Shown: positions 335-31,045 of the stretch, one piece after another
Position numbering within the stretch: position 1 is the stretch's first letter
Layout: every line of letters starts with the position of its first letter
Virus record (IMG/VR): IMGVR_UViG_3300017971_000124
Span: 1-42,737 of that record
Strand: one strand, 5' to 3'
Length of the DNA stretch: 42,737 bases
DNA from: a virus
Translations under genes and position numbers: made by a program
Notes under the pieces: generated by a model
The model's input: only the letters and a program-made list of their open reading frames with translations
What the model was told of the DNA's origin: nothing
Database searches by the model: none

Positions 335-3300
335 TATCTATCAGCCTCCGAGGGAGTGACGGTGCTTCTGAACTCATCCTCAAAGTAGAACGGCTCGTCA
401 TCGATGTACAACCAAGCAAGCATCCGTCCATAGTGGTCCGTGTCTCCGAATAGTGGGTCTCTCACGAGGTATATTGTAGCACCGTCCTGCACAGCCTTGG
501 TGAGGGCGTCCTGCAGGCGCTTCTTGTCGTCCGCAGCACCATCGTTATCGAGGCCGTAGTCCCGAGCATTGACACCGAGCAGACGCACCGTACGGTTCTC
601 CTGGGCGCCTCGGCGCTCCTTGAACACGATGGTGTCCCCGTCCGGGATGTACCGGATATAGGGCTTCGTGACGCCGGTACGCAAGCCGCCGTCCTCTTCA
701 AACGGAGACAGCGGTTGCGGTGGCTCCCACTCCAGCGGGCCGTACGTCCGAGCGTACTTGTTGTCCCAGATGTCCTGCCAGGCGATAGGCAGATTGCTGG
801 TCGCCCAGAGGTTGCCGAACTCCTGAGCCATTTCCCGGGCCTTGGAAAGGGGAACCCCACCCACCTCGTCACGGTACTGGTCGCCGAGGCGGTCGGCCCG
901 GAGCTGCCAGTTGGCCAGGTCGTCCCGCCAACCTTCAGCAAGGTCCGGGTTCTGCTTGGCCTTGGCCAGCTCCGCCTCAGCGGCCCGGGCCCCTACTCCA
1001 CGCTCAGATATGTAGTGGTCGTAGGCCGGCCGCACAGTGGAGAACAGTGGGCTGTCGACATCGGTGATTACGTCCTGTACCTCGTTGAAGAGCTGCAGGC
1101 CGGTCATGCCAGAGGTCAGATCGATCCCGAGGCCAGCAGCGATCTGGTTAACCTCGGGGGTGAAGTAGTTGAATTTGACATTCTGGAACTGTTGGCTCAG
1201 CTCAGCATCATCGAGGCCCGGCCACGAGCGGCCCCACGGCTTCTCGTCCGCTGGAATCCTGATGAGCTCCCGGATGCGGTCGTAGTCCTCGGTGCCCTTG
1301 ATCGGGTCGACGCCCTGCTGCTTGGCGTAGTACTCCTCCATGCGCTCCTCCATGGACCACCAGTTGTTCCAGAGGTCACGGGCGTCCTCGACAGCGAACT
1401 CTTCACGGAACTTCGGGTCGGCCAGGAACGCATCGATGATCCGCCTGGAGTCTTCGCCCACGGCCTGCTCCCAGATTGCATCGTTGACCTGCTCAGCGGT
1501 GTACTCGTAGATCTTCTTGGCCACGCTCTCTTTGCTGGCCTGCATGAGTCCGATGATGCGCTTGGCCCGCTCGATCGGAACCACAGGGCGGATGTAGCCG
1601 GCGTCCACGTAGGCTTGGTGCAGGGCCCGGCCCTCAGGGGTCGAGCTCGACCGGTACACAGTCTCGGTCCCGTCGAGACCGGCCTGGACAGCAGACGGGG
1701 TCCAGTCCCAGGAGCCGACGAGGTTGACGGCCAGGCTAGGCTGCTGTGAGATGAAGAGATCCCGCTGCCAGGAGGGCAGATCGAAGAAAGCCTTCCGCAC
1801 ATCGTTGGCGTACTGCCGGCGCAGGTCCGGGTCTTCCAGGTCGACGTTGGCGAGCGACGGCCGCACCGCCAGCTCGGGGAACTTGTCAGCGGCCTCCACC
1901 CACACATCGAAGATCTCGTGTAGGTTGGTCTCGTACTGGTTCGACGCCGGGAACACCATGCGGCTGACGGTCTCCAGAGCGTGCGAGCTGGCAACGTTGT
2001 TGTCGGCCTCGTGGCTCAGCGCCAGGAGCAGGGTCTCCACATCCTCGGGGGTCTCTGCCTGCAGCAGACGCTGCAGCTCTTCCGGCTGTGCGAGCATGGC
2101 CGAGAGCTCCCTTGTGCGGTCAAGCTCTCGGGAGATGTCGCCAAGCATGTTGGTGGCGAAGAAGTAGGGCTCGTGGTTCACGAAGGTGGCTGCGTCCACA
2201 GCCAGCGAGATCGTGGAACCCACGGTACCGCCACCCAGCAGACGGGGGACGATGCCGGTGCCGGCGGTGTACTTCACCGAGGGGACGAAGTCTCCCACGA
2301 TGTCCACCAGCTCCTGGTACCGCTCCGGGTCGTCGATCGGGTCGGCCAGATTCTGCAGCAGCATGTCGATGCCCCACATGGGGACGTAGCCTATGCCGGG
2401 CAGGATCGCACCGAACGGGTTGTCCCCGCCGGTGGGCAGGAAGAACAGAGGCGAGAAGTCGGTCTCGTCGGCGCCGGGCAGCAGCCCGCCCTCGCCAAAC
2501 ACTCCCGGCAGGTCCGGGTGCAGCCCCTTGTCGATCGTGAAATCGGTATGGGCCAGCCGGCTCATCATGGCCAGCGGCTTCGGGTTGAACGGGATGAGGT
2601 GACCGAACTTGTCGTACATGGTCCGCATCCCGAGCAGATTTTTCTGGTTGATCTGGCCACGGAGCATCGGCTTGCGCATGACCTCCCGGCCCCAGAACCC
2701 TGCCATGTCAGCCCACGGCCGGCCGAAGGGAAACACCCCTTGCGCCTGCTGACCGAGCCTCGTGCTGCGGTCCCAGGTGAAGAGCATGTTGTCGATCTCT
2801 CGCTCTACGGTTCGCTCCACCAAGTCGTCGATGTAGCCCTGTGGGACATAGCCCTTGTCGAAGGCAGTCTCGTACAGCATGTCCTTGAGACCGGTACGGG
2901 TACCGCCAGAGATGCCCTTGAGCCCGAGCATACGCTCCAGCTCGGCATCACCGACAATGGTCATTTTCTGTGAATCGAACAGCCGCTGCAGGCGGGCCGT
3001 CTCAGCGGCACGCACTTGCTCGGCAACCAGCCCTCTGCGGTAGTTGACGGGGTCCATGAACCAAGCATCGAAGAACGTCTCGGTCATGGCCGACACAGGG
3101 TGCCTGGCGCCGAGCTCTTTCTTCACGCCACGGATCGGACCGAGGTTGTCAAACACAAAGCTCGGCAGCTCCTTGGGGATACCGCCGGCGCCGTCAATAG
3201 CGGCAGCGGTCTCCCGGAACGCTGCGAGGACATCATCGAACACGCCATTCTTGTTGGCGGTGGAGAGAATGACCTCCTCGAACAGCTTGCTCCATCCGTC

Positions 3301-6300
3301 GAATGCTTCGTCTGCTCCAGACAGGAGCCGGGTGTGCATGTTGCCCTTGGCGTCCTTGGACAAGGCCACGCTGGTGCGCAGCTTCTCCCCGTCAGTGCCG
3401 GCGAACCACTCACGGAACGCCGTACGTCCACGGAGGAAGGCACGGAACCCGGAGTCCTGCAGCAGGCCACCGGTCCAGCGTTGGGCGGCTTCTAGGTACT
3501 GCGCCTCGTTCGGCTGAATGTCGTGCCAGCCCAAGCCGTTGCCGTCGTGGAGCTGCCGCTCGGCAGCCTTGAGGTAGGTGGGATAGTCAGACAGGGCCTG
3601 CAAGCGCTTCTGACTCACAGGGTCGAGGTGTGCTGACCCGGAGCGGACCGCACGCCGGCTGGCGGGGTTGCCGAAGTTCTTGGCCATGTGGGCAGCACGG
3701 GCACGCAGGAACAGGGCCCGGTCCCGCTGCCAGCGGAGGAACCCGTCTCGCACTCCGAAGACGTGCATGTCACGCATGAGCTCGTCCCAGCTCACCGTCA
3801 CGGCGGTGGCCGGCCGGAACACCTTGTCGATCTTCCAAGCGTTGTTGAGTCCATGAGCTGCGTCCCGCAGAGTCTTCACAGCGATGTTGTGGCTGAGCCG
3901 GGTGTATGCGGCTCCGCCCTTCTCAGTGGCGAGCAACAGCTCCAGCGGTGACGCTGGCACGTTCACGGCCACAGCGGAGTCTAGGGTGCTGGACAGGCGT
4001 TTCACCAGGGTCTCAGCCTCGATGCCGAGCTCCTCGGCGACGGCCTTCATGTCCTCCGACAGGAACTTGCGGGGACCCTCGGACACCAAGGCATCGTCAG
4101 CCTTGCTGAACAGGGAGCCCTTCTTAAGCTCTTCCCACGGCACAAGCCCTGTTTCTGGATCTATCTTGCCGGCCCACGCCGGGTTGGTGGCGATGTTGGT
4201 GCGGTTGTAGTCGTCCCACATTTCTTCGACCAGCTTGGCAAGCTCGGTGGTGTTGGCCTGCTCCTGTAGCAGCTTGTCGATGGTGCCGTACTCCGTGTCG
4301 AACACCTTGGCGAGCTCATCGTACTGAGCCTGCAGCTCACGAACCGCACGGCGGGCCTCGACCCCCCTGGGGCCCTTCTTGTTGGCGGGGTACGGGGAAC
4401 CGCCGAGCCGGTCAAGCAGCTCGTCTAGCTCGTGCCGCACCGGCTCCAGCAGCTTCAGCCTCTCGGCTGCCTCTCGGTGAGCGTGGGCAGCTTTACGTTG
4501 AAACTCCATGATCCGGGTCTGCCACATGTCGGCCTTGACTACGTCGTCTCCCCAGATACGGAAGGTGGTCTCGATGAGGCGGTCAGCGGCACGGGTACCC
4601 GTGAGCTCTAGCCGGCGCACTGTGTTCTGGGGGGACATGTACCGGGAGACCCAGCGTGTCCCCTTGTTGGTGCGTGCGGCTTGACGGATGGCCTGGTTCC
4701 AGTGTACGGCCACGGCCGACCGGTTGGCACCGTCCGGTATGTTGCCACGCAAGATAGCTCTCTTGGTGGCTGCTCCCAGAGCCTCCATGTCGATCGCACC
4801 CAGCAGCACGTCCTTGGGGAAGAACTGATCCGGGCGGGTGATTACGTCTCCAGCGCCGGCACCCTTGAGCGCCTTGCGGGACTGCCGGCCCTTCATGAAG
4901 ACATCGAGGGACTGGCCCACAGGTTGGGGGGCCATCGGGAACTCAACCGTGACGCCCAGTTTTTCGGCCTGCTTCTTGATGAAGGAGAACCCAGCATCGG
5001 AGATCCCCGTGCTTGCAGCCAACCGGTCGAGGGGGTTCATCTTGAGGCGGTGCGCCTCCTCGATGACGTACTCTGCCACAGTACGGCCGTCAGCGAGGGT
5101 GACTGGGCCGTCTTTTGCCCCGCCTGTGTACTTGGTCTTGAAGCCTATCTCGTCGCCCTGGAAACCGCCGATGGCTCGCCTCACTCCACCCTTATCCACA
5201 TGCACGAAGACGGCGCCCTTCTGGCCAGGCACGATGTGGGCAGTAAGGATACTCCCGTCCGACATCTCCTGAGAGGCCAGTATGCGGGCAGCTCGCTCCT
5301 CCTCCTTCACACGGTTGAACAGTCGATTCTGAGAGGTGTCGGCCGCACTGACGAGCCGGTCTACTACCCCCTCGGTGACGGAGGTACCTGTCAGGTTGGC
5401 CGGCCGGCCGGCGAAGTCGTCCACGATGTTGAGGCGCACAGGGACATGGTTGATGCCGGCCTGCTCCGCAGCGAGGATACGCTTGACACCGTCGTCCACG
5501 AAGACAACGCCGTCGCCCCGGGTGATGGTGATGCTTGCGTACTCGTCGAACCCGTTGGCCAGGATGTCGTCAACCAGCGGAGAGACCTCCAGGGACATGA
5601 CACCCTGCCGTTGGGCGTCGTCCACCAGGGAGGACAGGAACTTGGTTTCGACCTCCATAGCATTCTCTGCGCCAGACGTAGCTCTCCACCTGCCTCTCGG
5701 GATCTGCCGGCTCTGCCACCCAGTGATCTCCAGGAGCTCGGTGACGAAGCGGCTGTCGGCCCACGAACTGACGTGCAACAGCTCGGCCATTCCTGCGGAG
5801 GCGGAGCGGGCTATGCGGGCAGTGTCCCGGGCGAACTGCATGGTGATCGGGTGACGTGCAATCGCCTCGGCGCTAGCGAACGACGTGGCCTTGTTGGTGG
5901 CCACGGAGCCACGGGGGCCGAAGATCCAAGTCATCGGGTCGAAGGCAATGCCGGAACCGAGGTCCAGGAGCAGCCCGGACAGGGAGCCATCGATGCCAAG
6001 AGCGGCGGAGGGGGTGTGGTCGTAGTACTCGGAGGTGCTCTCCAGCTCGGAGAACAGCTCGCCCCAGCGTCCGTGGATAGCATCGTCGAAGTAGTCGCCG
6101 TCTGTCAGGAACAGCGAGAAGTAGGTGGATAGCCGGCCCGGCACGTTGCGGCCGTATGCGGCCATGATGTCGAGCAGCTTACCCGAGGCACGGAAGTCTG
6201 TACCCTCGAAAGCCTCGATGGCTTGCCTCTCCTCGGCTCGTAGCTCTTCGACCACGTCAGCCATCTGCTGCATGGCGGTGTCGTCCTCCATGACATCGGC

Positions 6301-7527
6301 ACGGAAGAAGTTGAACGCCATGTCGGGATTGAATCCGGCCATGAGTAGGTACCGGTCGTGCTCGGCCTTGTTCGTCTGAGGCATCTCATCCCAGATTTCC
6401 CGGGCGGACCGGTAGGCGGTCTGGCGAATGAGTTGTTCATCTGGCGCATTATTCAGGACCGCCATGTTCTCCCGAATGCGCTCCTGCTCAACCTCGTGCT
6501 CGGCACGCAGCGCATCGTAGGTACCGTGACCCGGGCTCAGGGCCTCGATGCCCCACAGTGCGCCCTCGATTCCCTGATCGGCCTTGTCCATCATCCACGG
6601 GAATACACCCACCACGCCGTCAATGCCACGGTGGATGAAGCCCTTGTCTTGCAGCACCTCGTACGGGTCCACGCCCTGTGCGAGCTGGGCCTCCATCTCA
6701 GCCCGCTCCTCAGCGAGCTTGTCCTCGATGGTCTCGCCCTCACGCAGCAAGCCGTCTCCGTAGTTGCGGATAGCGGCCTCCCAGGCACGGCGCCGAACAT
6801 CCATGCGGGCATCGATGCGGTCCTCGTACTTGGACAGCGGATTCCAGTACAGCTCGGCTACCTCTCGGCGGTTCTGCTCTTCGGTCTTCAGGTCACGGAA
6901 GTCTGGAGCTCCGCCAAACTGTGGACGATTGCCTGGCAGCAACAGGCTACGAGCGGCGCTTACGGCCCAGTCCCACGGGCCACGTTGCTGTCGACGCTCC
7001 CACGCATCCTTCGCCAGATTGTCGATGTTCTGCTGGTGCATGTAGTCCTCAGCGGCGGAGAGTTGTACCTCATTGACCCAGGCAGCCAGATCCTGCATGC
7101 CCTCCTGGTCCCCCATGAAGTACTTGATGTCGGCCGGGTTCCACTGCACCCACCACTCCATGGGGATCTCCCCACGATGCTTCTGGTAGGCGTCCTCGTA
7201 CGTTGCGGCGAACTGGTTCCGGCGAGTGGCCAAGACCTCACGGCCAACCTCGGTCACCTGCTCAGACCACGCATCGCCGGCACCGAACAAGCCACCAAGG
7301 CCCTCGGCCAGACGGGACGCTGCGTCCACGACGGTCTGGTCACTGCGGGCCCACGGGTCGCCCAGGTAGGCTTCCGTCACCTGTGACGGCTGCTTAGCCA
7401 GGGCACTTAGTTTCTGTGCGTCCATGGCCTGCTGCCAAGCCTGACGCTCCTCACGGTCTTGATGCTGCCCCTCGATCATCGAGCTGACGAACTCTCTGAC
7501 GTCTTCTGGGGTCCAGTCAGTAGCCAC
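334..7527 (-). CDS. Giant multidomain (polyvalent-type) virion or ejection protein, 2397 aa
   Basis: An uninterrupted 7.2 kb ORF lies downstream of the portal and three small genes. It contains a ParB/Srx-like segment and a C-terminal staphylococcal-nuclease-like segment. Its stop overlaps the next ATG. Confidence 0.85.
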   Translation of the reverse strand: MATDWTPEDVREFVSSMIEGQHQDREERQAWQQAMDAQKLSALAKQPSQVTEAYLGDPWARSDQTVVDAASRLAEGLGGLFGAGDAWSEQVTEVGREVLATRRNQFAATYEDAYQKHRGEIPMEWWVQWNPADIKYFMGDQEGMQDLAAWVNEVQLSAAEDYMHQQNIDNLAKDAWERRQQRGPWDWAVSAARSLLLPGNRPQFGGAPDFRDLKTEEQNRREVAELYWNPLSKYEDRIDARMDVRRRAWEAAIRNYGDGLLREGETIEDKLAEERAEMEAQLAQGVDPYEVLQDKGFIHRGIDGVVGVFPWMMDKADQGIEGALWGIEALSPGHGTYDALRAEHEVEQERIRENMAVLNNAPDEQLIRQTAYRSAREIWDEMPQTNKAEHDRYLLMAGFNPDMAFNFFRADVMEDDTAMQQMADVVEELRAEERQAIEAFEGTDFRASGKLLDIMAAYGRNVPGRLSTYFSLFLTDGDYFDDAIHGRWGELFSELESTSEYYDHTPSAALGIDGSLSGLLLDLGSGIAFDPMTWIFGPRGSVATNKATSFASAEAIARHPITMQFARDTARIARSASAGMAELLHVSSWADSRFVTELLEITGWQSRQIPRGRWRATSGAENAMEVETKFLSSLVDDAQRQGVMSLEVSPLVDDILANGFDEYASITITRGDGVVFVDDGVKRILAAEQAGINHVPVRLNIVDDFAGRPANLTGTSVTEGVVDRLVSAADTSQNRLFNRVKEEERAARILASQEMSDGSILTAHIVPGQKGAVFVHVDKGGVRRAIGGFQGDEIGFKTKYTGGAKDGPVTLADGRTVAEYVIEEAHRLKMNPLDRLAASTGISDAGFSFIKKQAEKLGVTVEFPMAPQPVGQSLDVFMKGRQSRKALKGAGAGDVITRPDQFFPKDVLLGAIDMEALGAATKRAILRGNIPDGANRSAVAVHWNQAIRQAARTNKGTRWVSRYMSPQNTVRRLELTGTRAADRLIETTFRIWGDDVVKADMWQTRIMEFQRKAAHAHREAAERLKLLEPVRHELDELLDRLGGSPYPANKKGPRGVEARRAVRELQAQYDELAKVFDTEYGTIDKLLQEQANTTELAKLVEEMWDDYNRTNIATNPAWAGKIDPETGLVPWEELKKGSLFSKADDALVSEGPRKFLSEDMKAVAEELGIEAETLVKRLSSTLDSAVAVNVPASPLELLLATEKGGAAYTRLSHNIAVKTLRDAAHGLNNAWKIDKVFRPATAVTVSWDELMRDMHVFGVRDGFLRWQRDRALFLRARAAHMAKNFGNPASRRAVRSGSAHLDPVSQKRLQALSDYPTYLKAAERQLHDGNGLGWHDIQPNEAQYLEAAQRWTGGLLQDSGFRAFLRGRTAFREWFAGTDGEKLRTSVALSKDAKGNMHTRLLSGADEAFDGWSKLFEEVILSTANKNGVFDDVLAAFRETAAAIDGAGGIPKELPSFVFDNLGPIRGVKKELGARHPVSAMTETFFDAWFMDPVNYRRGLVAEQVRAAETARLQRLFDSQKMTIVGDAELERMLGLKGISGGTRTGLKDMLYETAFDKGYVPQGYIDDLVERTVEREIDNMLFTWDRSTRLGQQAQGVFPFGRPWADMAGFWGREVMRKPMLRGQINQKNLLGMRTMYDKFGHLIPFNPKPLAMMSRLAHTDFTIDKGLHPDLPGVFGEGGLLPGADETDFSPLFFLPTGGDNPFGAILPGIGYVPMWGIDMLLQNLADPIDDPERYQELVDIVGDFVPSVKYTAGTGIVPRLLGGGTVGSTISLAVDAATFVNHEPYFFATNMLGDISRELDRTRELSAMLAQPEELQRLLQAETPEDVETLLLALSHEADNNVASSHALETVSRMVFPASNQYETNLHEIFDVWVEAADKFPELAVRPSLANVDLEDPDLRRQYANDVRKAFFDLPSWQRDLFISQQPSLAVNLVGSWDWTPSAVQAGLDGTETVYRSSSTPEGRALHQAYVDAGYIRPVVPIERAKRIIGLMQASKESVAKKIYEYTAEQVNDAIWEQAVGEDSRRIIDAFLADPKFREEFAVEDARDLWNNWWSMEERMEEYYAKQQGVDPIKGTEDYDRIRELIRIPADEKPWGRSWPGLDDAELSQQFQNVKFNYFTPEVNQIAAGLGIDLTSGMTGLQLFNEVQDVITDVDSPLFSTVRPAYDHYISERGVGARAAEAELAKAKQNPDLAEGWRDDLANWQLRADRLGDQYRDEVGGVPLSKAREMAQEFGNLWATSNLPIAWQDIWDNKYARTYGPLEWEPPQPLSPFEEDGGLRTGVTKPYIRYIPDGDTIVFKERRGAQENRTVRLLGVNARDYGLDNDGAADDKKRLQDALTKAVQDGATIYLVRDPLFGDTDHYGRMLAWLYIDDEPFYFEDEFRSTVTPSEADR
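400..669 (-). other. Staphylococcal nuclease (SNase)-like module at the C-terminus of the giant protein
   Basis: The sequence YIPDGDTIVF...RTVRLLGVNARDYG...HYGRMLAWLYID resembles the SNase pattern DGDT / RLxGIDAPE / YGRxLAYV. Confidence 0.6.
5422..5610 (-). other. ParB N-terminal/sulfiredoxin-like module inside the giant protein (aa ~640-702)
   Basis: ITITRGDGVVFVDDGVKRILAAEQAGINHVPVRL fits the ParBc pattern I.V.R.DG....LI.G.RR..AA..AG...VP, with GVKR in place of GERR. Confidence 0.55.
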
Positions 7528-10349: not shown

Positions 10350-12245
10350 TCAGCCACGGCGCCCTCGACGAGTCACCACCTGTGGGGCCCCTCGGCGCCT
10401 GGCGATCTCTTCCTGATTGAGTGGTTGGAGCTGGGCGTTGTCCGCTTCACCATTTGCTACCCACAGGGCCATGAGAGCGTCACCGGTAGGATCGGCCCAC
10501 GGGAACGTCGCCAGGTCATCGAGGAGTTGGTTCCACAGCTCTTCGTTGTCGGGGTTGCCCGAAGCGATCTGGATGAGGCCCGAGCCGATCATGCCCGACA
10601 GAGCGGCGATGCCGTACTCCTCATCCCACTTGTTCTTGCGCTTGCCTCGACCGGTCGTGTGGTGGTCGATGAGCTGCACGCCGTCGCCACGGGTCCGCTT
10701 GACGAGGGTCTCGTCCCCGAGCAGCGTCTTGGCGAAGTTGGTCTCTACCACCACGACATCGATGGAGTGCTGCAGGGCCTTGTACTTCTCGATGAACTGG
10801 TAGATCAGCTTCTCCCTCACCCCCGTGGCGCCGAGGTGAGTGCCGACGAACATGTCGATGACGGTCCGCACCTTCGTGATCGGGTCCACAGCCAGGAGGA
10901 CCGCAGCGGCCCGGCCGGTCGTGGCGGGGTCGATGCCCAACACGAGGCGCTCGTGCTGGAGCACCTGACCGAACTTGCGGTGCCGGCCGTTCTCGACCAT
11001 GAGGTCACGCAGCATCTCGGAGAAGATAGCGGTCCCCTCCTCGACGTCCTCCTGCTGGTAGATGAGCTTCCACCGCTGAATGGACTTCCGGGCGAGGAGG
11101 TCCCTCATGTCTCTCATGCCCATCTGATACCCAGTGATGACATCCTGTGTGGTGCCGTCCTTCATGTCGATGGTCTCAACGATGTCGTACCCGTCGAGGG
11201 TCCAGTACTCGGGCCAGTTCACCCGCTCCTGGTCGGTATGCTCATCGAGGATGGCCGGGATGATGACCTGCCTGAACAGGCGCTGCCCCGCCCATGCCTT
11301 CTTCCACTGGCCGTACAGGTCCTGCGGGATCAGCCTCGTCCCGTTGACGATCGTCTGACCCTTCTGAGCACGGCTGCGAGCCTCGCCATCAAACCAGTTG
11401 TCGATCCGCTCCCGGGAGATCTCCGATACCTGATTGTCCTGAACAAGTGCGTCGTCGAGGATGAGATGATCCAGGCGTGACCCGTAGATGAGCTTACCGA
11501 TTCCGAGGGCTTGTACCGAAGGGTCTCGTTCACCTGACTTGCGGTGTCGAATGAAGAACTGATTCTGGGACCACTCCATGTCACCATGAAGGGGCTTCCA
11601 ACCGTTGAAATCGATGATGAGGTTTTGTGGTGCGTCGTCATAGAGATGCTCTTCTGTCAGGTACCTCTTGATTCTAGTCAGGAGGTCCTGGGCCTTCGTG
11701 CTGTTCTTGGTGACGATGGCGGTCCGCTCGTCGAAGTTGCGAGCGAGGCAGTAGAGCACGTACCACAGGGAGACGATGGTTGACTTGCCCGACTCGGGGT
11801 GGCCGAGGATGAGGACCACCTTGGCGAGCGGGTCCTCCAGTGCGTCCTCGATTTCGAGCTGGTGGCGGACGAGGGTGAAGCCTCCGTAGCGCTCGACGAA
11901 CTCGGAGAACCGCATGGCCCCGAGGTCAGGGGTCTCCAGCAGTGCGATCTCAGAGGTTGAGATCTGGCGGGCCTGGTCAGCCCACTCGGTTTCCTTCGCA
12001 GAAAGCTGGGCCCACCACCTGTAGGTGTAGCCCAGCCGTTCCGCTGCTTGCGTGAAGTTGTATCCGTGGCCCACGAGAACGAGGAAGTTCTCCATGGCCC
12101 ATTCCTTGTACTTCTTGGTGCCCTTCTTGCCCGGAGCCTTAGGTATCCAAACCTCAGGGAGGTTGTCTCCCTTGAATCCGTGCTGTGCTTTAGACGGAGT
12201 CCAGAGCTCCCTCTTCGCTCGGGCTGGGCCGGCGTCTGATGACAT
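10350..12245 (-). CDS. terL: Terminase large subunit with an N-terminal TerS-like HTH extension, 631 aa
   Basis: It has Walker A GHPESGKST, Walker B LDHLILDD and an RNaseH-like nuclease segment LGIDPATTGRAAAVLLAVD. The N-terminal ~110 aa (KKGTKKYKEWAMENFLVLVGHGYNFTQAAERLGYTYRWW) resembles small-terminase HTH regions. Confidence 0.9.
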   Translation of the reverse strand: MSSDAGPARAKRELWTPSKAQHGFKGDNLPEVWIPKAPGKKGTKKYKEWAMENFLVLVGHGYNFTQAAERLGYTYRWWAQLSAKETEWADQARQISTSEIALLETPDLGAMRFSEFVERYGGFTLVRHQLEIEDALEDPLAKVVLILGHPESGKSTIVSLWYVLYCLARNFDERTAIVTKNSTKAQDLLTRIKRYLTEEHLYDDAPQNLIIDFNGWKPLHGDMEWSQNQFFIRHRKSGERDPSVQALGIGKLIYGSRLDHLILDDALVQDNQVSEISRERIDNWFDGEARSRAQKGQTIVNGTRLIPQDLYGQWKKAWAGQRLFRQVIIPAILDEHTDQERVNWPEYWTLDGYDIVETIDMKDGTTQDVITGYQMGMRDMRDLLARKSIQRWKLIYQQEDVEEGTAIFSEMLRDLMVENGRHRKFGQVLQHERLVLGIDPATTGRAAAVLLAVDPITKVRTVIDMFVGTHLGATGVREKLIYQFIEKYKALQHSIDVVVVETNFAKTLLGDETLVKRTRGDGVQLIDHHTTGRGKRKNKWDEEYGIAALSGMIGSGLIQIASGNPDNEELWNQLLDDLATFPWADPTGDALMALWVANGEADNAQLQPLNQEEIARRRGAPQVVTRRGRRG

Positions 12246-12453
12246 CGATGACCTTCATGTCTGCTACGTAGTGGACACCATTGTAGCGGAATGAATCCTC
12301 GTCGACCTCCACCTCGACAATCCAGGCGGTAGCCATGCCCCGGGGGAGGACAACCCGGGGCATGGTCAGGATCTTGTGAGGGAAGATGTCATAGAACCGA
12401 AACCAGGCGTGCTTGCGGCTGGTGCCGAGGAGCTCGGCATGTACCCGCTTCAC
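12190..12453 (-). CDS. Small hypothetical protein (87 aa from a GTG start, or 57 aa from an internal ATG)
   Basis: The GTG overlaps the upstream stop (GTGA). The ORF overlaps the terL start by 56 nt. It is the C-terminal part of track ORF 12190..12696. Confidence 0.35.
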   Translation of the reverse strand: MKRVHAELLGTSRKHAWFRFYDIFPHKILTMPRVVLPRGMATAWIVEVEVDEDSFRYNGVHYVADMKVIDVIRRRPSPSEEGALDSV

Positions 12454-12863
12454 TCCACTACCCAGTCGTAAACGAAGTCTTGTGGAATGACCCTGGCAGG
12501 GGCCGTGGTGACAGGCGGGTGTTTGTCGGGCCGGTCGTCGAACTCGGCGTACTGTGGGTCCTGGCTGAAGGTGTGCAGGACCATGCTGTGCCATGCCACA
12601 TGTGCCAGGTGAGGCAGTCCGCTCTCTTTGTCGTAGACCTCTCCTGCCCAGAAGGCATGGAGGTGCCGAAGCAGGGCCCCGTACGACAGCCGCCACGAGT
12701 AGCCCTTGCGCCAGTTGTCGTCATCGTACTTCTCGGCGCCCATGCCACACACGAGTCCGAGCTGCTCCAGCCACGGCACGGCTATCAGGTCCTGGCGGTT
12801 CGGCTTCTGCCCCTTCTGTCCGCCTGTGTAGCTCGTCTTCCGCACCTCACCGGTCATATCCAT
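12450..12863 (-). CDS. dATP/dGTP diphosphohydrolase N-terminal-like domain protein, 137 aa
   Basis: GGQKGQKPNRQDLIAVPWLEQLGLVCGMGAEKYDDDNWRKGY...LLRHLHAFWAGEVYDKESGLPHLAHVAWH matches the remembered pattern of this phage domain family (GG.K...GKPr.dLip...l..la.v...GaeKY...NWrkG...HL.Ha). Confidence 0.6.
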   Translation of the reverse strand: MDMTGEVRKTSYTGGQKGQKPNRQDLIAVPWLEQLGLVCGMGAEKYDDDNWRKGYSWRLSYGALLRHLHAFWAGEVYDKESGLPHLAHVAWHSMVLHTFSQDPQYAEFDDRPDKHPPVTTAPARVIPQDFVYDWVVE

Positions 12864-13656: not shown

Positions 13657-14769
13657 TCATAGTTCCTCGGGTTCTTGGGCGCATTCCTTCTTCCAGCCTG
13701 AGATGGTGCCCACGGACACGTTGTACTGTTTGGCTAGCTGCCTGGTGGAGACTCCGCCCAGCTTGCCGGCTGTCCAGTCCTGCAGGAACTGGGTCTTCTG
13801 TGGGTTCATCTTACGGCCCCGCTTCTTCTCGTCACCCGGCAGGTAGTGACCCTCTTCGATCCACTGCCAATCGGTGTACAGCAGGTTCTTCTCTTTCCAC
13901 TCTCGGGCCATGGAGCGGAAGTCTGGGCTCACAGACACACGATACGAGGTCTGGCCCTTGATGACGGCCTCCTCTCCCTTCTGCAGTAGCCAGAGCTGCG
14001 GGGCCCAGCCGTGGATCAGGTTCGATCCCATGATCTTGTGACCCCCCGAGGCGCTCTTAGACTTGTTGTTGTGGTGGATCAGGATGATTTGGCACCCTGT
14101 TTCCTCGGTGAGGCGGTCCAGACTGGTCGTGACATGAGCGATAGCCTTGTCATCGTTCAGCCCGGACCCCTCGGTCTGGATCTTGTACAGCGGGTCCAGT
14201 ACCAGATACTCGATCTCGTTCTGTACGATCTGGTCCTTGATGGCCTCGACGTTCTCCTCAGTGACCGTGAACCCCGGGCGGGGCCGCACGAGCAGCTTCT
14301 TACGGGTCTGGAGCTCCTTCCCTGACCTCTGGAACTTCCGTTCTGCCCCCTTGGCGCTCGGTTGCACAATGGAGCCGTAGCCCTGGCGGGCGAGGGTCTC
14401 CATGGCGTGCCGGCGGACGTCTTCGAGGGTGTTCTCCTCGTGCATGTAGAGGACGTTCTTGGGGGTCCCGAGGTACGGGTATCGGCCCAGGAACGGCTCT
14501 CCGGTCGCCAGGGTCCATGCGAGCTGCATAGCGATGGTTGATTTGAACGATTTGGGGTCCCCGTTGATGAGGAGGCCCATACCGGACACCAACCATCCAG
14601 GGATCAGCCATTCCGGCTCTGACAGGGGCCAGGAGGCGAGATCGAAGAAATCGACCCCGTCCTCCCGGGCTGTGCGCCTTAGTTGCTCCTGGAGCTCATG
14701 GTCCTTGACCTTCTGCTCCCATTCTAGGTCCTCAGCGAGGATCTTGAACTTGCGTGGTGTTGCTGGCAT
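13657..14769 (-). CDS. RecA-fold ATPase of the RepA/AAA_25 type (putative replicative helicase) with a C-terminal HTH, 370 aa
   Basis: It has the P-loop region LLINGDPKSFKSTIAMQLAW, Walker B YLVLDPLYK and the C-terminal HTH VSTRQLAKQYNVSVGTISGWKKE. The RBS GAGGAGAG precedes the ATG. Confidence 0.7.
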   Translation of the reverse strand: MPATPRKFKILAEDLEWEQKVKDHELQEQLRRTAREDGVDFFDLASWPLSEPEWLIPGWLVSGMGLLINGDPKSFKSTIAMQLAWTLATGEPFLGRYPYLGTPKNVLYMHEENTLEDVRRHAMETLARQGYGSIVQPSAKGAERKFQRSGKELQTRKKLLVRPRPGFTVTEENVEAIKDQIVQNEIEYLVLDPLYKIQTEGSGLNDDKAIAHVTTSLDRLTEETGCQIILIHHNNKSKSASGGHKIMGSNLIHGWAPQLWLLQKGEEAVIKGQTSYRVSVSPDFRSMAREWKEKNLLYTDWQWIEEGHYLPGDEKKRGRKMNPQKTQFLQDWTAGKLGGVSTRQLAKQYNVSVGTISGWKKECAQEPEEL

Positions 14770-15682: not shown

Positions 15683-16074
15683 AGCTGCCCCAACAAGTCG
15701 CCGTACGCCTCATAGGCAGCACGCACATACTCGAAGATGTCATCGTACTTCACATCGGCGGTACGAGTGACCTTCGGCGCCTCATCGGCGACCGGGCCGA
15801 GCTTGGCGTTAGGCAGCGGCAACGTCACGCCACCCGGGAAATAGGCGACAAGATCCGCACGCAACTCAGCGAGCTTCCGCTCCAACCGCTCCTCCTTCGC
15901 CGCCTCCAACTGGCCCTCCAACCGGGCCCGCAACTCAACAGCCCCAGTCGGGATCTGCGACGGCGCCTGATGCCTCGGCGACACAATCCCGTCCAACCTC
16001 ACCTTCGCATCACCCAGGAACTGAATGAACCGCTCCTCAACCTCATCGTACGAAGAATCATACGGATTACTCAT
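15679..16074 (-). CDS. Hypothetical protein, 131 aa (internal ATG of track ORF 15679..16287)
   Basis: The ATG at 16074 is preceded by a GGAGG RBS. The sequence begins MSNPYDSSYDEVEERFIQF.... Confidence 0.6.
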   Translation of the reverse strand: MSNPYDSSYDEVEERFIQFLGDAKVRLDGIVSPRHQAPSQIPTGAVELRARLEGQLEAAKEERLERKLAELRADLVAYFPGGVTLPLPNAKLGPVADEAPKVTRTADVKYDDIFEYVRAAYEAYGDLLGQL

Positions 16075-16084
16075 CTCTGACCTC

Positions 16085-16240
16085 CTAGTCAGTACTATCA
16101 ACACGGTCCAGCCTAACGGCCACGCCATCATAGCGCCGCCGCCGCTCCCGCTCCTCACGGATCTGCCGCATCTCATCACGCAGCCAAACCCCATACTCAT
16201 CCCAACTCTCAAAGATCCTCTCTGCCTGATTTCTGAACAT
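16085..16240 (-). CDS. First gene of the leftward arm: small Arg/Glu-rich protein, 51 aa
   Basis: Hand translation gives MFRNQAERIFESWDEYGVWLRDEMRQIREERERRRRYDGVAVRLDRVDSTD. Its TAG lies inside the RBS of the next gene. Confidence 0.4.
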   Translation of the reverse strand: MFRNQAERIFESWDEYGVWLRDEMRQIREERERRRRYDGVAVRLDRVDSTD

Positions 16241-16273
16241 ATCCACACTGACTGCAACCTTCCTGTGGCACCG

Positions 16274-16302
16274 ATTATTCCCACCAAAGTGTTCAGTGTT
16301 CA
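16274..16302 (-). promoter_or_regulatory. Candidate housekeeping-sigma-type promoter for the leftward arm
   Basis: On the minus strand: TGAACA (16302-16297), a 17-nt spacer, then AATAAT (16279-16274), about 35 nt upstream of ATG 16240. The -35 element lies inside the GTGTTCA tandem repeat. Confidence 0.35.
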
Positions 16303-16309
16303 GTGTTCA
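16289..16309. repeat. Perfect tandem triplet of the heptamer GTGTTCA
   Basis: GTGTTCAGTGTTCAGTGTTCA is read directly at 16289-16309. Confidence 0.95.
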
Positions 16310-16342
16310 ACCCCTAAAGGGGGGAATTATTGAACTGAACAC
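16296..16342. promoter_or_regulatory. Composite inverted repeat or hairpin: GTGTTCAGTGTTCAA / CCCC-TAAA-GGGG / TTGAACTGAACAC
   Basis: The right arm 16330-16342 is the reverse complement of the left arm apart from a 2-nt bulge. The central CCCCTAAAGGGG sits at 16311-16322. Confidence 0.7.
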
Positions 16343-16343
16343 T

Positions 16344-17400
16344 CAGAACGACCGCTAACGGGTTCAGCAGTACCCTGCGGAGCAACGGGTACCTGCGTGA
16401 ACTCCTGCCGCCTTAGCCAGGGCATATGTAGAGAGGAGATGTGTATCGGTTTATCAGGATGTATCAGGAACGATTCAGATTGTCTCAGAGAACATTCGGA
16501 GGTTTTCGGGAAATCTGTTTGCACAGTCCCCTTAAGGATGGGGACGGCAGGGTTATGATCGTGGGGTTGGGTTCACCAGAGGGCTCCCTGAGAGACACAC
16601 ATATACGGGGCCCCCCCTATCGTTCCTTGGGTACGGTCAAAGAGAGGGGGCCTAGCCCCTTGGCTTACTGTCGGGTCTGGGCGCACTGGTCGTAAGAGTT
16701 AAGGCAGGGCACTGCGGCTGGGACCCTGCACCCAGCCACAGCACCAGTCTCCTTGTCCCTTCCCCACCCACCATGCAGCCTCCGAGCAGGCTGCCCCCAG
16801 AGGCGGAGCGCCTGCCGGCGAAGACCAGAGCCAAGAGGTGTTGCCTCGTCTGTGCACAGGCGGGGGCGGCGCTGATGTGGGAGGTCTCGTGTGCCCAGGA
16901 GGGCGCAGCCTCCCGAATCCGGCTGCTCTAGCGGCGCCTTCCGGCGAGCATGTCTCGTGGCCTGCGTAACCTGCCCAAAGCGGCAGGGCAGGCCCCGAGC
17001 GTCTTGTTGAAGAGTTGAACCCATTTGAGCGCCATCGGCCTGTCAAAGCCCAGGCCGACTACCAGATGCACCTAGCACAGTCCAGGCAAGCTCCCACTCC
17101 GAAGACTCCGTTCCCGCACTCCTCGGCACGCAGCCGAAGCGGCTGACCTTTACAGCGCCTCGTTACTCACCAACGGGGACCGTTAGCCTTCGTCGACCTG
17201 GCCTGCCTGCCTGCAGTCAAGGGACGGGCTGACTACTTCGACAATGCGCAAAGCCTGCACGCCTCAGAGCCGGCGTGCCATTGCCGAACCAGTCACCCAC
17301 TTGAACCCTTGACAGCACCGGCTTAGTCCTTCGTCCTGCGCCTGGCACGGTGATCTGGTGCCTAGGTGGCGCAAATGGGTTCAGGAAGAGCAAGAACCCG
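16344..17400. ncRNA. Candidate large structured RNA, or an origin/regulatory hub. Class unknown and strand unresolved.
   Basis: There is no credible ORF in any frame. Perfect local helices are dense: 16526-16545, 16645-16660, 16712-16741, 16775-16794, 16970-16987, 17131-17145, 17257-17278, the nested pair 17337-17373, and 17377-17399. Confidence 0.3.
16452..16469 (+). repeat. TATCAGGA direct repeat with a 10-bp period, inside an AT-rich island
   Basis: TATCAGGA occurs at 16452-16459 and 16462-16469. A degenerate copy, TATCGG, lies at 16444-16449. Confidence 0.8.
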
Positions 17401-17401
17401 C

Positions 17402-17429
17402 TAGACCGAAAGGACACGTTATGTATATT
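17402..17429 (+). promoter_or_regulatory. Candidate promoter for the rightward arm
   Basis: TAGACC (17402-17407), a 16-nt spacer, then TATATT (17424-17429), in the only AT-rich patch upstream of ATG 17592. This would give a ~155-nt leader. Confidence 0.3.
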
Positions 17430-17591
17430 CGCCCACACACCCTGCAGGGCCTGGCAGCCAGCCACCTCAAGCGTTGGGGCTGGGAGCGAGTCGACCACAA
17501 CGAGGGGCGCCGGCACGGCCAGGGCTTCTTGAGCTTGGGTCTCTTCTTCCTCAACGTGATCTGGTAGGAACCGATAGAAAGCGAGACAGAC

Positions 17592-17828
17592 ATGGATCAG
17601 TACGAAGCAGCATACGGGGATCTCAAGCCGATCAGGGGCAAGGAGGTCGAAACGTGCGGTGAGCCTTGCAAGCAGTGCGAGCTCATCGATCTGTACCGGA
17701 ACGAGAAGCCGACCGACCGCAGGGACATCAATGAGGCCCGGGCAGCACAGGGCCTGGCTCCGTTGAACGAGGCGATTCACGAGAGCATCGTTGCCGGGAT
17801 CAATCGGTATCGGAAGGAGAAGCCATGA
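17592..17828 (+). CDS. Early hypothetical protein, 78 aa, with a CxxC pair
   Basis: The first plus-strand ORF. Its stop overlaps the next ATG (ATGA). Confidence 0.6.
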   Translation: MDQYEAAYGDLKPIRGKEVETCGEPCKQCELIDLYRNEKPTDRRDINEARAAQGLAPLNEAIHESIVAGINRYRKEKP

Positions 17829-21123: not shown

Positions 21124-21993
21124 TTACAACGCAGCCACCGCTTTCTGGATCTCACTCCACAACACATGTGGTGCATGGCGGTCCGTCCGCCACTTGCAGT
21201 ACGGCTGAACCCACAACAGATGGAAGACCTCTTCCGGCTCCAGACCCTCCTTGATGAGCTGATGACACGCCTTGTAGATGAAGAGGGACCGGTCGCTTAC
21301 TCTCTTCCTCGTGATGATGGACTTGGATCTCGGATTGAGGTGGGCCCAGTGCTTACGGCGCAGGGCGTGAAGCATGGCCGGCACCTGTGACTCGTGGATC
21401 ACGATGGGGTGGTCCGTGTCCTCGATGGTCTCGATGAGATCGAGCGCCGGCAGTTCCTCAGCCAGCATCCCCCTGGCATACTCTGGCCCGTCGTCCCAGA
21501 GCAGCACCCCGGCCGGCACCAGATTGTCCCGGCGCCGCTTCCAGTTCAGCGAACCAGGCCACCGCAGCGCCTTCGAGCCCATCCAGCCACCGGGGTCGGC
21601 CTTGGTGTACCGGGTCATGCGCCGGTTGAGGTTGGACCACTCATTGTAGTTCTCGATCTCCTCATCTAGAAACCACACCGCCTGATACATCCCCGGGCTT
21701 GTCTCCCAGGCGATGGTCGGCTTATGGGGTACCTCCCACGGCTTCACAGGGTCGAGGTCGGCGAAGAGGAGGGCAGCGCCGCCGAAGTTGTCATTGGCTC
21801 GCCACATCTTCGAGGACCGCAGCGCCGAGAAGAACAGGTCGTAGCCAGATGGCTGATGATCGAGAGGCAAGCCAGCCTGGTCAGAGGTCACCGGCCAGTC
21901 AGTCCACTTCCCATCAAACTTGGTAGAGACGAAGGCAAACTCGCCCCGGCTCTGGTTCCAGATCCTCTCCACGAGCTCTTCGTTGGGCAACAT
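21124..21993 (-). CDS. RepB'-like / archaeo-eukaryotic-type DNA primase, 289 aa
   Basis: LLFADLDPV, TIAWETSPGMYQAVWFL and ALRWPGSLNWK fit the remembered RepB-primase pattern (DxD, ETSPGxYQxW, RxxGxxNxK). The ATG at 21993 has an AAGGAG RBS. The longer track ORF would overlap the divergent gene. Confidence 0.6.
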   Translation of the reverse strand: MLPNEELVERIWNQSRGEFAFVSTKFDGKWTDWPVTSDQAGLPLDHQPSGYDLFFSALRSSKMWRANDNFGGAALLFADLDPVKPWEVPHKPTIAWETSPGMYQAVWFLDEEIENYNEWSNLNRRMTRYTKADPGGWMGSKALRWPGSLNWKRRRDNLVPAGVLLWDDGPEYARGMLAEELPALDLIETIEDTDHPIVIHESQVPAMLHALRRKHWAHLNPRSKSIITRKRVSDRSLFIYKACHQLIKEGLEPEEVFHLLWVQPYCKWRTDRHAPHVLWSEIQKAVAAL

Positions 21994-22056
21994 TCGGGAA
22001 TACTCCTTGCGTCGAATGTGTTGTACATCATAGTCAACGCACAGGAGACCAGTTTT

Positions 22057-22482
22057 ATGCCCGAGTTTGACATCAACCCAGAGGATGTTGATCCCCGAGA
22101 GCAGCTCAGAGACGAGCAGACGCAGAGGGAGCAGGAACACCTATACGAGATGATCGAGAAGATCACCCTGGTCATGAACGAGTACTACCCCACGGGCATA
22201 CGCCCCAGTGAGCTCAGCCCCCTCATCGTCCACCTGCTCATGCACATGCGGCGCTTCATCCGCCTCGAAGAGCTCCACATGGGCCTGCACGAGCTCCTGG
22301 GTGTCGCCGAGACGTGGCTCCAGTCTGACGCTCAGTGGCGCAGCGTAGAGACCAACGAGACCACCCCGCCGCCCATCACCATCGAGAAGGTCGAGGACAA
22401 CCCAGAGGGTATGGCCATGATGGAGGAGCTGCAGGCCGGCGTGACCGACGAGGCTCTCAAAGAGCTCCTCGGAGGTGAGTAG
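22057..22482 (+). CDS. Acidic hypothetical protein, 141 aa
   Basis: The ATG at 22057 follows AGGAG, within track ORF 21724..22482. Confidence 0.65.
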   Translation: MPEFDINPEDVDPREQLRDEQTQREQEHLYEMIEKITLVMNEYYPTGIRPSELSPLIVHLLMHMRRFIRLEELHMGLHELLGVAETWLQSDAQWRSVETNETTPPPITIEKVEDNPEGMAMMEELQAGVTDEALKELLGGE

Positions 22483-29184: not shown

Positions 29185-29702
29185 TGCCCGCAACTGCCAG
29201 GAAGTTCAACATCACAGCAGAGGACCTCGCCAACGAAGGCGGCGGCGGTGCGTACGCTGAGCTGGAAGTCCCTTGGGACGGGCCGGCACTGCTCAAGGAT
29301 GTGAACGATTACGACAAGACCAAGAAGGGTGGGACGAAGGGTTGGCTCGCCGACTACGTCGTGACCACTGACTCGGGCAAAGAGCTCGACTTCAGTGTCC
29401 ATCTCTCCTTCTCACAGGCTGCACGGTGGAAGCTCATGCAGTGGGCCGAGGCTCACGAGCTCGACCTCACAGAGGGCATCAACTCGATCGACCCGAACGA
29501 GGCCATCGACACCGAGGCCGGCGTCCACATTGACTTCCCTCGGGATGGCAACGATGAGCCGACCAGCAAGTACCGTGAGATCCGGGAGTTCTACCCCCTG
29601 GCCGAGCTCGACGAAGAGGAAGATTTTTCCGACGAGCCCCAGCCCGATCCGACAGACGTCGTTGTCACAGACGGCGAGGAAGAAGACCCAGAGATCCTCT
29701 AG
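29184..29702 (+). CDS. Putative ssDNA-binding protein (DUF669-like) with an acidic C-terminal tail, 172 aa
   Basis: It sits directly after the Sak4-like ATPase, as in known AAA_24/DUF669 pairs. The tail is DGEEEDPEIL. The GTG start follows GGAGG. Confidence 0.45.
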   Translation: MPATARKFNITAEDLANEGGGGAYAELEVPWDGPALLKDVNDYDKTKKGGTKGWLADYVVTTDSGKELDFSVHLSFSQAARWKLMQWAEAHELDLTEGINSIDPNEAIDTEAGVHIDFPRDGNDEPTSKYREIREFYPLAELDEEEDFSDEPQPDPTDVVVTDGEEEDPEIL

Positions 29703-29725
29703 GGTTTCATCACAGTGACGTTACT

Positions 29726-29755
29726 GCCCTGGCACTACGGTGCCGGGGCTTTCGT
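29726..29755 (+). terminator. Terminator hairpin at the convergence point of the two arms
   Basis: A 10-bp stem, GCCCTGGCAC-tacg-GTGCCGGGGC, has one G:U pair valid only on the plus strand. It is followed by TTTCGTCATTC. Confidence 0.65.
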
Positions 29756-29979
29756 CATTCTGGGTGGTAGTGCGTGTGCCCGCCAGTCATGCGGGACAGA
29801 AGTACAGCAGCAGACGCCATCGTAGCCCACTGCGACGCCTGCTGCCTGTTCCCCAGCTCACAGCAGGCGACAGCATGCGCCCACAGACACATGGCGTGCC
29901 AATGAGGGTGAGACTCGTCGAGGTCGTGAGCCTCACACCACTCATCGAGGAGCTCTTGAGCACGTTCGTCGACATTCAT
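29755..29979 (-). CDS. His/Cys/Trp-rich small protein, 74 aa
   Basis: The ATG at 29979 follows AGGAGG. The peptide is MNVDERAQELLDEWCEAHDLDESHPHWHAMCLWAHAVACCELG...GGHTHYHPE. Confidence 0.55.
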   Translation of the reverse strand: MNVDERAQELLDEWCEAHDLDESHPHWHAMCLWAHAVACCELGNRQQASQWATMASAAVLLSRMTGGHTHYHPE

Positions 29980-30002
29980 CGTCACCTCCTTCTTCCTGAC
30001 CA

Positions 30003-30040
30003 TAACACAAAGAGAAACGCTCCCGTCACCGGGAGCGCTC
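30003..30040 (-). terminator. Strong rho-independent terminator of the late operon
   Basis: On the minus strand: AGCGCTCCCG-GTGA-CGGGAGCGTT (10 bp, GNRA-type loop, wobble valid only on the minus strand), followed by TCTCTTTGTGTTAT. Confidence 0.8.
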
Positions 30041-30061
30041 TCATGCTTACGTCTTGAGTGC

Positions 30062-31045
30062 TTACGCAGTCGGGGTAACACGGTCAGGCGCCACATCGTA
30101 TTCCAGGTAGAACACCGAGAAGTCGATGGCATCTCCTGCGACACCGTTGGTCACCGACACAACCAGATCCTCTCCAGCGTCCAAGAGAACACCCGAATCG
30201 GGGAACTCCTTGGTGGAGAGCTTGTCTGCAGCGTCGACGCCAGCAGTGGTAGTACCCAGGGTAGCCGCATCCCATGCGTTGTTGCCGCCGGCCATAGTGG
30301 TCGTGCTAGCAATCGAGTTGCCGGCCGTGCCTTTGACGGCTGCAGTGAACACCATGTCGTTCGTAGAGAAATCCACAGCGGTCACACCAAGTGATGCGTA
30401 GACAGCGTCGGTCACAGTGTGCAGCGTGCCGCCGTTGTCACGGTCGACGAATGCTGCCTCCAGCGTGGCCTGCGAGCCCGCAACGTTAGTGTTGACGAGC
30501 AGCTCGTTGGCTGCGCCAGTGAGAGCGTCCTTCCATGTGAAGGTCACACTGCCGATGACGAGTTCCTCGTCCTCAGCGGCCACTGTGTCGACAGTCAGCG
30601 TGCCTTGTGCAGCGACAGCCTCGTTGCCCACGGCATAGTCGTCGGGGACCCACAAGGTGGTACGCTTCGCAGTGGTGCTGGCCGCAACGTTCGCATGCGT
30701 GATGCTCTCGATCGCAGCGTCCGCTGTGGTCTGCGTCTTGTAGACAACCGCACGGTTAGCCACGTTCGCATCGGTCACGAGGACGTGCTTCGCACCGATG
30801 AGGAGCCACGTCTTCCCCGTGGGGACCGTGAGGGTGGTCGACGCATTGCCGGCCACTGCCTCCTTGTGCTGGACACCCAACTTGGGAACCTCGAACGTCG
30901 AGCCGAGCTGGTGCATGATGTCGTTGGCATCTGCTGCCAGGGTCACGTTTGCAACGCCGTCAGAGGCGAATGTGACGTCCTGCCCCAGGAGGGGCCGTCC
31001 GCCAACCTTCTTACCCTTGTGCTTGCGTGAGTAAATCCTTGCCAT
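30062..31045 (-). CDS. Ala/Thr/Val-rich hypothetical protein, 327 aa, with a basic N-terminus. Possibly a virion surface or receptor-binding protein.
   Basis: It is the last ORF of the late operon, after the lysis genes and immediately before the strong terminator. No motif was recognised. Confidence 0.75.
   Translation of the reverse strand: MARIYSRKHKGKKVGGRPLLGQDVTFASDGVANVTLAADANDIMHQLGSTFEVPKLGVQHKEAVAGNASTTLTVPTGKTWLLIGAKHVLVTDANVANRAVVYKTQTTADAAIESITHANVAASTTAKRTTLWVPDDYAVGNEAVAAQGTLTVDTVAAEDEELVIGSVTFTWKDALTGAANELLVNTNVAGSQATLEAAFVDRDNGGTLHTVTDAVYASLGVTAVDFSTNDMVFTAAVKGTAGNSIASTTTMAGGNNAWDAATLGTTTAGVDAADKLSTKEFPDSGVLLDAGEDLVVSVTNGVAGDAIDFSVFYLEYDVAPDRVTPTA

Follow-up and report, generated by a model that had tools for sequence, protein, structure and literature searches.

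Between the two gene arms of a 42,737-nt viral DNA (IMG/VR record IMGVR_UViG_3300017971_000124, positions 1 to 42,737; 'the window' hereafter) lies a long region free of genes. In our reading, the assembler has probably joined the two physical termini of a linear double-stranded DNA phage genome here and so closed it to a circle, and the region would function as DNA and not as a large RNA. The window represents a complete phage genome of ~42.6 kb and ~61% G+C that was assembled as a circle. Its positions 1-123 are an exact duplicate of 42615-42737, located in a 281-nt gap between the gene for a 2,397-aa protein and the neighbouring gene; this duplication is the overlap of a circular assembly and no biological terminal repeat. 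A first-pass annotation, made from the sequence alone, had described the gene-free region as a hairpin-dense 'hub between divergent arms' and as a candidate large structured RNA or origin. There is indeed a gap between the arms, but such a hub exists only in the circularised assembly, and the 'divergent arms' would be the two arms that are usual in a linear phage genome, with the genes of each read from its own end inward.

The contigs that bear on the position of these ends come from other assemblies of the same phage, which do not bridge the junction but stop inside a 66-nt invariant segment. Early-arm contigs from JGI (L009, Ga0309773_1010184) and from Logan (L010, SRR6963591_495666, two runs) both start at 16528, while on the structural arm a Logan contig, SRR6963591_242412 (L004/L011/L012, two runs), has its end at 16550, and the contigs of the two arms overlap by CCCCTTAAGGATGGGGACGGCAG only, that is, by 23 nt. 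Because they stop at these two positions and share only these 23 nt, we interpret the positions as physical genome termini. Although the evidence from JGI and Logan contig ends is indirect, it places unique physical ends at a fixed sequence, and the simplest reading of the sequences is a linear virion DNA whose ends are defined and share a terminal redundancy of 23 bp. These 23 bp may represent either 5' cohesive ends that were filled in when the library was prepared or a terminal direct repeat of very small size, and circular assemblies that bridge the junction, such as the window itself, would arise from concatemers or annealed ends in the sample. Genome termini had been listed in the first-pass annotation as an alternative that would speak against its RNA, and the contig ends at 16528 and 16550 largely bear this alternative out.

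Comparison with relatives shows where sequence has been maintained. The region was recovered in three independent versions: that of the window, found in an ENA contig (L003/L008) as well, that of a Logan contig whose helicase is 50% identical to the window's (L002), and that of a JGI contig retrieved by a conserved DNA motif (L005). IMG/VR searches with the flanking helicase and a 78-aa protein returned no relatives, and the only closer relatives found of the window's spacer were short contigs. All three versions have a gene-free gap of 1.2-1.5 kb in the same place. The flanking and adjacent proteins are 24-50% identical, and the small proteins that border the gap only 24-25%. On the one hand, the GC-rich core of the gap ranges from ~600 to ~1,000 nt across relatives and cannot be aligned, as MAFFT and BLAST recover isolated words only. 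On the other hand, window positions 16440-16670 are 75-100% identical to the relatives, and the 66-nt segment within them, almost identical in L002 and L005, holds both the hairpin GTCCCC-TTAAGGAT-GGGGAC (16526-16545) and GGTTATGAT, which is invariant in all three relatives. A 22-mer at 16310-16331 forms a second invariant stretch. The most conserved noncoding sequence of the neighbourhood is thus the segment that holds the inferred ends.

Exact matches to the conserved motifs elsewhere were discarded as chance: two lay inside ThiS-like coding sequence (L006, L007), and two, in Salimicrobium (L015) and in a metagenome-assembled genome of Terriglobia (L016), had unrelated flanks. The last of these (JASHTY010000331.1, 42,052 nt) has at 3179-3197 a 19-mer, GTCCCCATCCTTAAGGGGA, in common with the window's end sequence, which is probably a chance match given its unrelated flanks.

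Could the contig ends instead be assembly artefacts? The genome would then be circularly permuted and packaged by the headful, and its conserved block, together with the dyad element described below, would form an origin and divergent-promoter hub. In keeping with this, the window, the ENA contig, L002 and L005 all span the junction; iteron-like repeats and AT-richer DNA adjoin the helicase and primase genes; the dyad is tied to AAA_25 modules elsewhere; and the same assemblies that stop at the junction also break near 30384-30442. We nonetheless consider this explanation unlikely. The JGI and Logan assemblers agree to the base at 16528, whereas they differ at the other break (30384 vs 30442). 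In the Logan pipeline, neighbouring contigs at a branch of the k=31 graph are expected to overlap by k-1 = 30 nt, and the overlap here is shorter than that. Furthermore, both contig ends fall in the middle of the invariant 66-mer, off any boundary between conserved and variable sequence, and in cellular metagenomes concatemers, or cohesive ends that have annealed, should give reads that bridge the junction.

The gap itself is well delimited. The codon signature of the genome (G+C of ~0.62/0.42/0.80 at codon positions 1/2/3) is found everywhere except from 16247 to ~17400, this is the largest gene-free gap of the genome, and gene callers left it empty on three independent assemblies. The first-pass annotation was therefore right that the gap is real and has no frame with the genome's codon signature, but its extent of 1,351 nt shrinks to 1,174 nt, since 17421-17567 is a gene. 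This 48-aa open reading frame, the first gene of the early arm, was called in three assemblies (L003, L009, L010) and encodes a protein with a hydrophobic C-terminus. No homologue of it occurs at the same position in L002 or L005, where the first early genes differ from the window's and encode a DUF4326 protein and a 124-aa protein. Hidden coding sequence within the gap was rejected. It is contradicted by translated similarity that appears in several frames on both strands and in the conserved block only; the variable columns of that block number 32/43/39 by codon position, and no conserved translated frame was found in the gap between the window and its relatives. An 84-aa frame at 16441-16695 is interrupted at different places in the relatives and has no third-position bias. 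Neither a transfer RNA nor a transfer-messenger RNA was found. The features of the region and of its neighbouring genes are collected in Table 1.

Table 1. Features of the gene-free region, of related genes in the window, and of hairpin-plus-iteron loci in other IMG/VR contigs.
Feature	Position	Strand	Remarks
Large terminase gene	10350-12245	-	phrog_38, E = 4.6e-49
AAA_25 helicase gene	13657-14769	-	
Region without genes between the arms of the circularised assembly	16247-17420		1,174 nt
Promoter-like TGAACA-17-AATAAT	16274-16302	-	Upstream of first structural-arm gene (start 16246); consensus match only
Dyad: invariant apex CCCCTAAAGGGGGGAATT and AGTGTTC boxes	16288-16344		Apex 16311-16328
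Five TATCAGR-like boxes	16444-16489		Phased 8-11 bp; AT-richer stretch
Near-invariant segment, 66 nt	16501-16566		Almost identical in L002 and L005
Putative physical genome ends: 23-bp terminal redundancy CCCCTTAAGGATGGGGACGGCAG	16528-16550		Contig ends
Moderately conserved last ~100 bp of early-arm end	16567-16671		Noncoding; cosQ-like position
GC-rich (65-70%), fast-evolving spacer with local palindromes	16672-17250		Unalignable with L002, L005
Distal copy of inverted 10-mer, TGAACCCATT	17016-17025		Part of 24-nt arm 17016-17039
Early-arm promoter/operator region	17250-17420	+	TTGACA 17309-17314; ribosome-binding site GAAAGGA
Proximal copy of inverted 10-mer, AATGGGTTCA	17374-17383		Part of 24-nt arm 17360-17383
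48-aa gene	17421-17567	+	Codon periodicity in phase of next gene; ribosome-binding site GAAAGGA
Primase gene, separate	21124-22140	-	
Hairpin-plus-iteron loci in IMG/VR (L013, L014, L020-L175)	e.g. L013:2197-2371, L014:3121-3264, L032:1850-2400		

Each side of the inferred cut has its own arrangement of elements. Five TATCAGR-like boxes, whose positions and phasing are kept in the window, L002 and L005, lie 40-110 bp inside one of the ends. This is the terminase side of the cut, because the large terminase gene and the portal-like gene that adjoins and follows it are on that arm. In phage lambda, the repeated sites of cosB occupy the same position relative to the cut and to the terminase genes, and the boxes are candidate binding sites of a small terminase (cosB-like), with binding of an initiator as the alternative. 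The sequence GGAATAA at the promoter-like site of the structural arm is also conserved in the relatives. Read inward from the end, the terminase side would consist of the TATCAGR-like boxes as small-terminase sites, then the dyad as an origin or a site of helicase loading, then the promoter of the arm.

Read inward from the other end, the early side would comprise ~100 bp of conserved end sequence, a ~600-nt fast-evolving spacer, and a TTGACA promoter with palindromic operators. Two elements lie at similar distances from the first early gene: the offsets in the window, L002 and L005 are 106, 90 and 94 for TTGACA and 139, 147 and 146 for ATGGCACG. In L005 the promoter reads TTGACA-17-TAAACT, with a good -10 element. 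GGCACG/CGTGCC palindromes stand on both sides of the early promoter (17257-17278 and 17337-17373). Two words are enriched in the gap, GGGTTCA (five observed vs 0.4 expected) and GGCAGG (nine vs 1.2), which suggests that they are binding words. In addition, two inverted 10-mers that can pair, the sole two copies in the genome, lie ~350 bp apart, and L005 has an equivalent inverted pair at offsets of 22 and 360, as against 37 and 395 in the window. The pair brackets the early promoter, and since one copy is upstream of it and the other in the leader, a DNA operator or looping fits better than a helix within one RNA. We infer that the 10-mers serve in repressor binding or DNA looping. Promoter- and operator-like elements are thus found at both arms, as in the promoter cluster that the first-pass annotation had offered as one of its alternatives; the AT-richer islands that it described also exist.

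The early side invites a second explanation, in which the spacer is a long 5' leader, or encodes small or antisense regulatory RNAs, transcribed rightward from TATGAT at 16554-16559, with hairpins that control the early genes. Both the invariance of GGTTATGAT in all three relatives and the hairpins just upstream of the first early gene (17337-17399) would suit this explanation. We find it very unlikely, as TATGAT has no good -35 element and lies 4 nt from the inferred end, all three relatives have conserved a separate TTGACA on the upstream side of the first early gene, ~100 nt away from it, and the sequence of the spacer is not conserved.

A third explanation, close to that of the first-pass annotation, is that the GC-rich core (~16670-17400) encodes a large, structured noncoding RNA of the GOLLD or ROOL kind, which evolves rapidly in sequence while keeping its fold. 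The helices listed in that annotation are present in the sequence. With z-scores computed against dinucleotide shuffles, the genome as a whole has a mean of -0.68 (standard deviation 1.37; 5% of its windows at -2.9 or below), the 749-nt GC-rich core scores -3.4 on both strands, and 400-nt pieces of it score from -1.8 to -3.4. The minus strand of the core also exceeds the genome's stability trend after adjustment for G+C, positions 17016-17039 can pair over a long range with 17360-17383, and a gene-free region of similar size is kept in the two relatives. However, the excess is only ~1-2 standard deviations beyond the genome background, and because it is strand-symmetric it points to DNA palindromes rather than to a strand-specific RNA. 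It is also lost in the relatives, where the distal half of the L002 spacer (z = +0.4 to +0.7) and the equivalent spacer of L005 (z = +0.2 to +1.0) fold no better than shuffles. The region can therefore be called rich in hairpins, but its density of them is only moderately above expectation, and not consistently so among the three versions. The long-range arms, lying as they do upstream of the early promoter and in its leader, fit DNA sites better.

Searches for known RNA families point the same way. The Rfam search that the first-pass annotation had proposed gave no match at the gathering score over the whole window, and at E <= 10 positions 16000-17800 gave only five sub-threshold matches, to unrelated families, none of them a large RNA. 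Conservation in relatives, another of the tests it had proposed, is found in the DNA near the left edge but not in the GC-rich core, and RNAalifold gave no covariation support for the conserved block on either strand (covariation term +0.13 and +4.21 kcal/mol). The core does resemble GOLLD and ROOL in its size of several hundred nt, its phage context and its many predicted hairpins; unlike them, it has no covariance-model match, no core conserved among relatives, where its length varies from ~600 to 1,000 nt, and no conserved excess of folding. A large RNA of this kind is highly improbable here.

The dyad (Table 1) lies ~225 bp from the putative genome end. Three tandem AGTGTTC boxes (16288-16308) precede its apex and inverted copies (16331-16344) follow it; iteron-type origins likewise have at least three direct repeats plus inverted copies around a central element. 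The four copies of AGTGTTC in the genome are all at the dyad. The apex is common to the window, L002 and L005, whereas the arms are wholly different and yet pair to give extended hairpins. It follows that pairing, or dyad symmetry, has been selected, and not the sequence of the arms. By its sequence and by analogy, the dyad appears origin-like, either a replication origin or a helicase-loading site of the AAA_25 system, and the origin that the first-pass annotation had named as an alternative finds a candidate in this iteron-and-hairpin element.

The apex is not confined to these phages. Searching IMG/VR with its 18-mer retrieved two unrelated contigs, in both of which it lies among short repeats right after an AAA_25 primase-helicase gene. 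A 16-mer of it gave 78 matches in 46 lineages, with analogous iteron arrays. An AAA_25 gene was detectable in 16 of these lineages, and in all 16 its 3' end points at the apex. Around the apex, short repeat boxes are enriched: a 6-mer is present at least four times in 35% of cases, and the figure for control positions is 1.8% (p = 1e-11). A second sample of 73 loci was picked by helicase homology alone, independently of the motif. In 51 of the 73, a hairpin of the form C4-8/N3-5/G4-8 lies 87-261 nt downstream of the helicase gene, its loop consisting of A/T in every case listed among the 51; the strict core, with a TTTA or TAAA loop, occurs in 15 of the 51 and nowhere in 253 kb of control sequence. 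Across dozens of unrelated viral lineages the C/G hairpin TTCCCCCCTTTAGGGG is near-identical, with the loop variants TAAA, TATAA and TTAAA. The core is not present in the distant RepB-primase/AAA_25 phages L017-L019, and the elements of L032 and L024 showed no DNA similarity to deposited phages. A literature search for the apex core sequence yielded nothing relevant.

The window's hairpin (CCCC-TAAA-GGGG, 16311-16328) was not scored as a Rho-independent terminator on either strand. Some other lineages, such as L013, carry T-runs at the hairpin, and there it could double as a terminator. Taking these observations together, we propose, as a possibility that we put forward only tentatively, that the TTCCCCCCTTTAGGGG apex, with iterons particular to each lineage on its flanks, forms the core of an origin or helicase-loading site that is widespread among phage and satellite AAA_25 replicons but hitherto undescribed, and that would here be placed ~225 bp from a cohesive-end site with an unusually long overlap of 23 nt.

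A number of points weigh against the interpretation of the region as joined genome ends with packaging, replication and early-control sites. The termini are read from contig ends and not from read starts or experiment, and the JGI and Logan assemblies may share sequencing data, so that they represent independent assemblers but perhaps not independent samples. An overlap of 23 nt is long for cohesive ends, which measure 12 nt in lambda and 19 nt in P2. As much as 4.3 kb separate the large terminase gene from the end, and a small terminase was not identified. The dyad is not directly adjacent to an initiator or helicase gene in the window, where it lies ~1.5 kb upstream of the start of a short helicase gene, whereas in the other lineages, 16 of 16, its place is just downstream of that gene. 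The -10 element that follows TTGACA in the window is poor (CGTCCT). Finally, the window's spacer folds better than shuffles on both strands (z ~ -3.4), for which palindromic binding sites are the only explanation that our interpretation offers.

Other proteins encoded in the genome include a capsid protein, DNA polymerase A, a PD-(D/E)XK nuclease, endonuclease VII and an AAA_24 ATPase; an integrase was not seen among those scanned. A single primase-helicase family (phrog_3123) matches the helicase in its C-terminal half and the primase in its N-terminal half, and the genes of the two sit in different arms, on opposite sides of the inferred genome ends. The C-terminus of the helicase has a weak match to helix-turn-helix domains of the TerS type. 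Homologues of this helicase are very rare among 5.8 billion proteins, and the region has no DNA similarity to any of 50,697 deposited phages, in near or distant mode.

Three further observations concern other parts of the genome. First, 12450-12863 (minus strand) encodes a MazZ-like dATP/dGTP diphosphohydrolase (PF18909, E = 1e-28). The family is known from phages whose genomes contain 2-aminoadenine (Z); of the proteins scanned, which represent part of the genes, none was PurZ-like. Second, the 2,397-aa protein is encoded at 334-7527 (minus strand), between the portal and head genes and the remaining structural module. Its matches are weak and confined to the last ~100 residues: residues 2290-2387 weakly match phrog_452 (annotated endonuclease), and residues 2319-2354 have a below-threshold, pectate-lyase-like Pfam match. 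Third, the strongest-folding 400-nt window sampled (z = -3.1 and -4.3) lies at ~29400-30450, where the arms converge, and probably reflects bidirectional terminators. It is near this convergent junction that two assemblies break at differing positions, 30384 and 30442, which suggests strain variation there.

For genome scans, these results mean that where a circular phage contig shows a large gene-free 'hub between divergent arms', the termini of a linear genome can simply have been joined there, and that the contig ends of other assemblies can reveal such termini without raw reads. A lineage without similar deposited phage DNA now has testable coordinates for its ends, packaging signals, candidate origin, and early promoter and operators. 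Two points deserve note, the unusually long 23-bp overlap of the ends and the widespread hairpin-plus-iteron element. The latter, if confirmed, could aid the annotation of origins in many uncultured phages and satellites.

Among known replication modules, the pri-rep-ori modules of Staphylococcus aureus pathogenicity island (SaPI) and phage-inducible chromosomal island (PICI) satellites, and the ori and crr of phage P4, have iteron origins by primase-helicase genes. For pRN1, a stem-loop origin downstream of the replication gene has been described (PMC4234260). As in these systems, the loci described here have a central element beside an AAA_25-type helicase or primase gene, with short direct and inverted repeats on its flanks that differ from lineage to lineage. 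Unlike in these systems, a C/G hairpin with a loop of A/T, identical as a 16- to 18-mer across unrelated lineages, takes the place of an AT-rich unwinding region as the central element.

As to the ends, the closest documented case is that of the phages of Cutibacterium (Propionibacterium) acnes, which have cohesive ends with an 11-nt 3' extension, opposed arms, and near the right end a noncoding region of > 1 kb that varies more than any other part of the genome and has been put forward as the site of the origin (Marinelli et al., 2012; PMC3448167). The phage of the window resembles them in its apparently unique ends within conserved sequence, in structural and early/replication genes that run inward from those ends, and in a variable noncoding stretch of ~1 kb by one end. 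It differs from them, and from lambda with its 12 nt, in a redundancy of 23 bp that is compatible with 5' overhangs, and its spacer, unlike those of the lambda-like and actinobacterial cos regions, is GC-rich, not AT-poor or of low complexity. Like lambda cosB, it has repeated boxes on the terminase side of the putative cut. By analogy, then, the region may be seen as a further example of a terminal region of the C. acnes phage type, in an unrelated and uncultured lineage.

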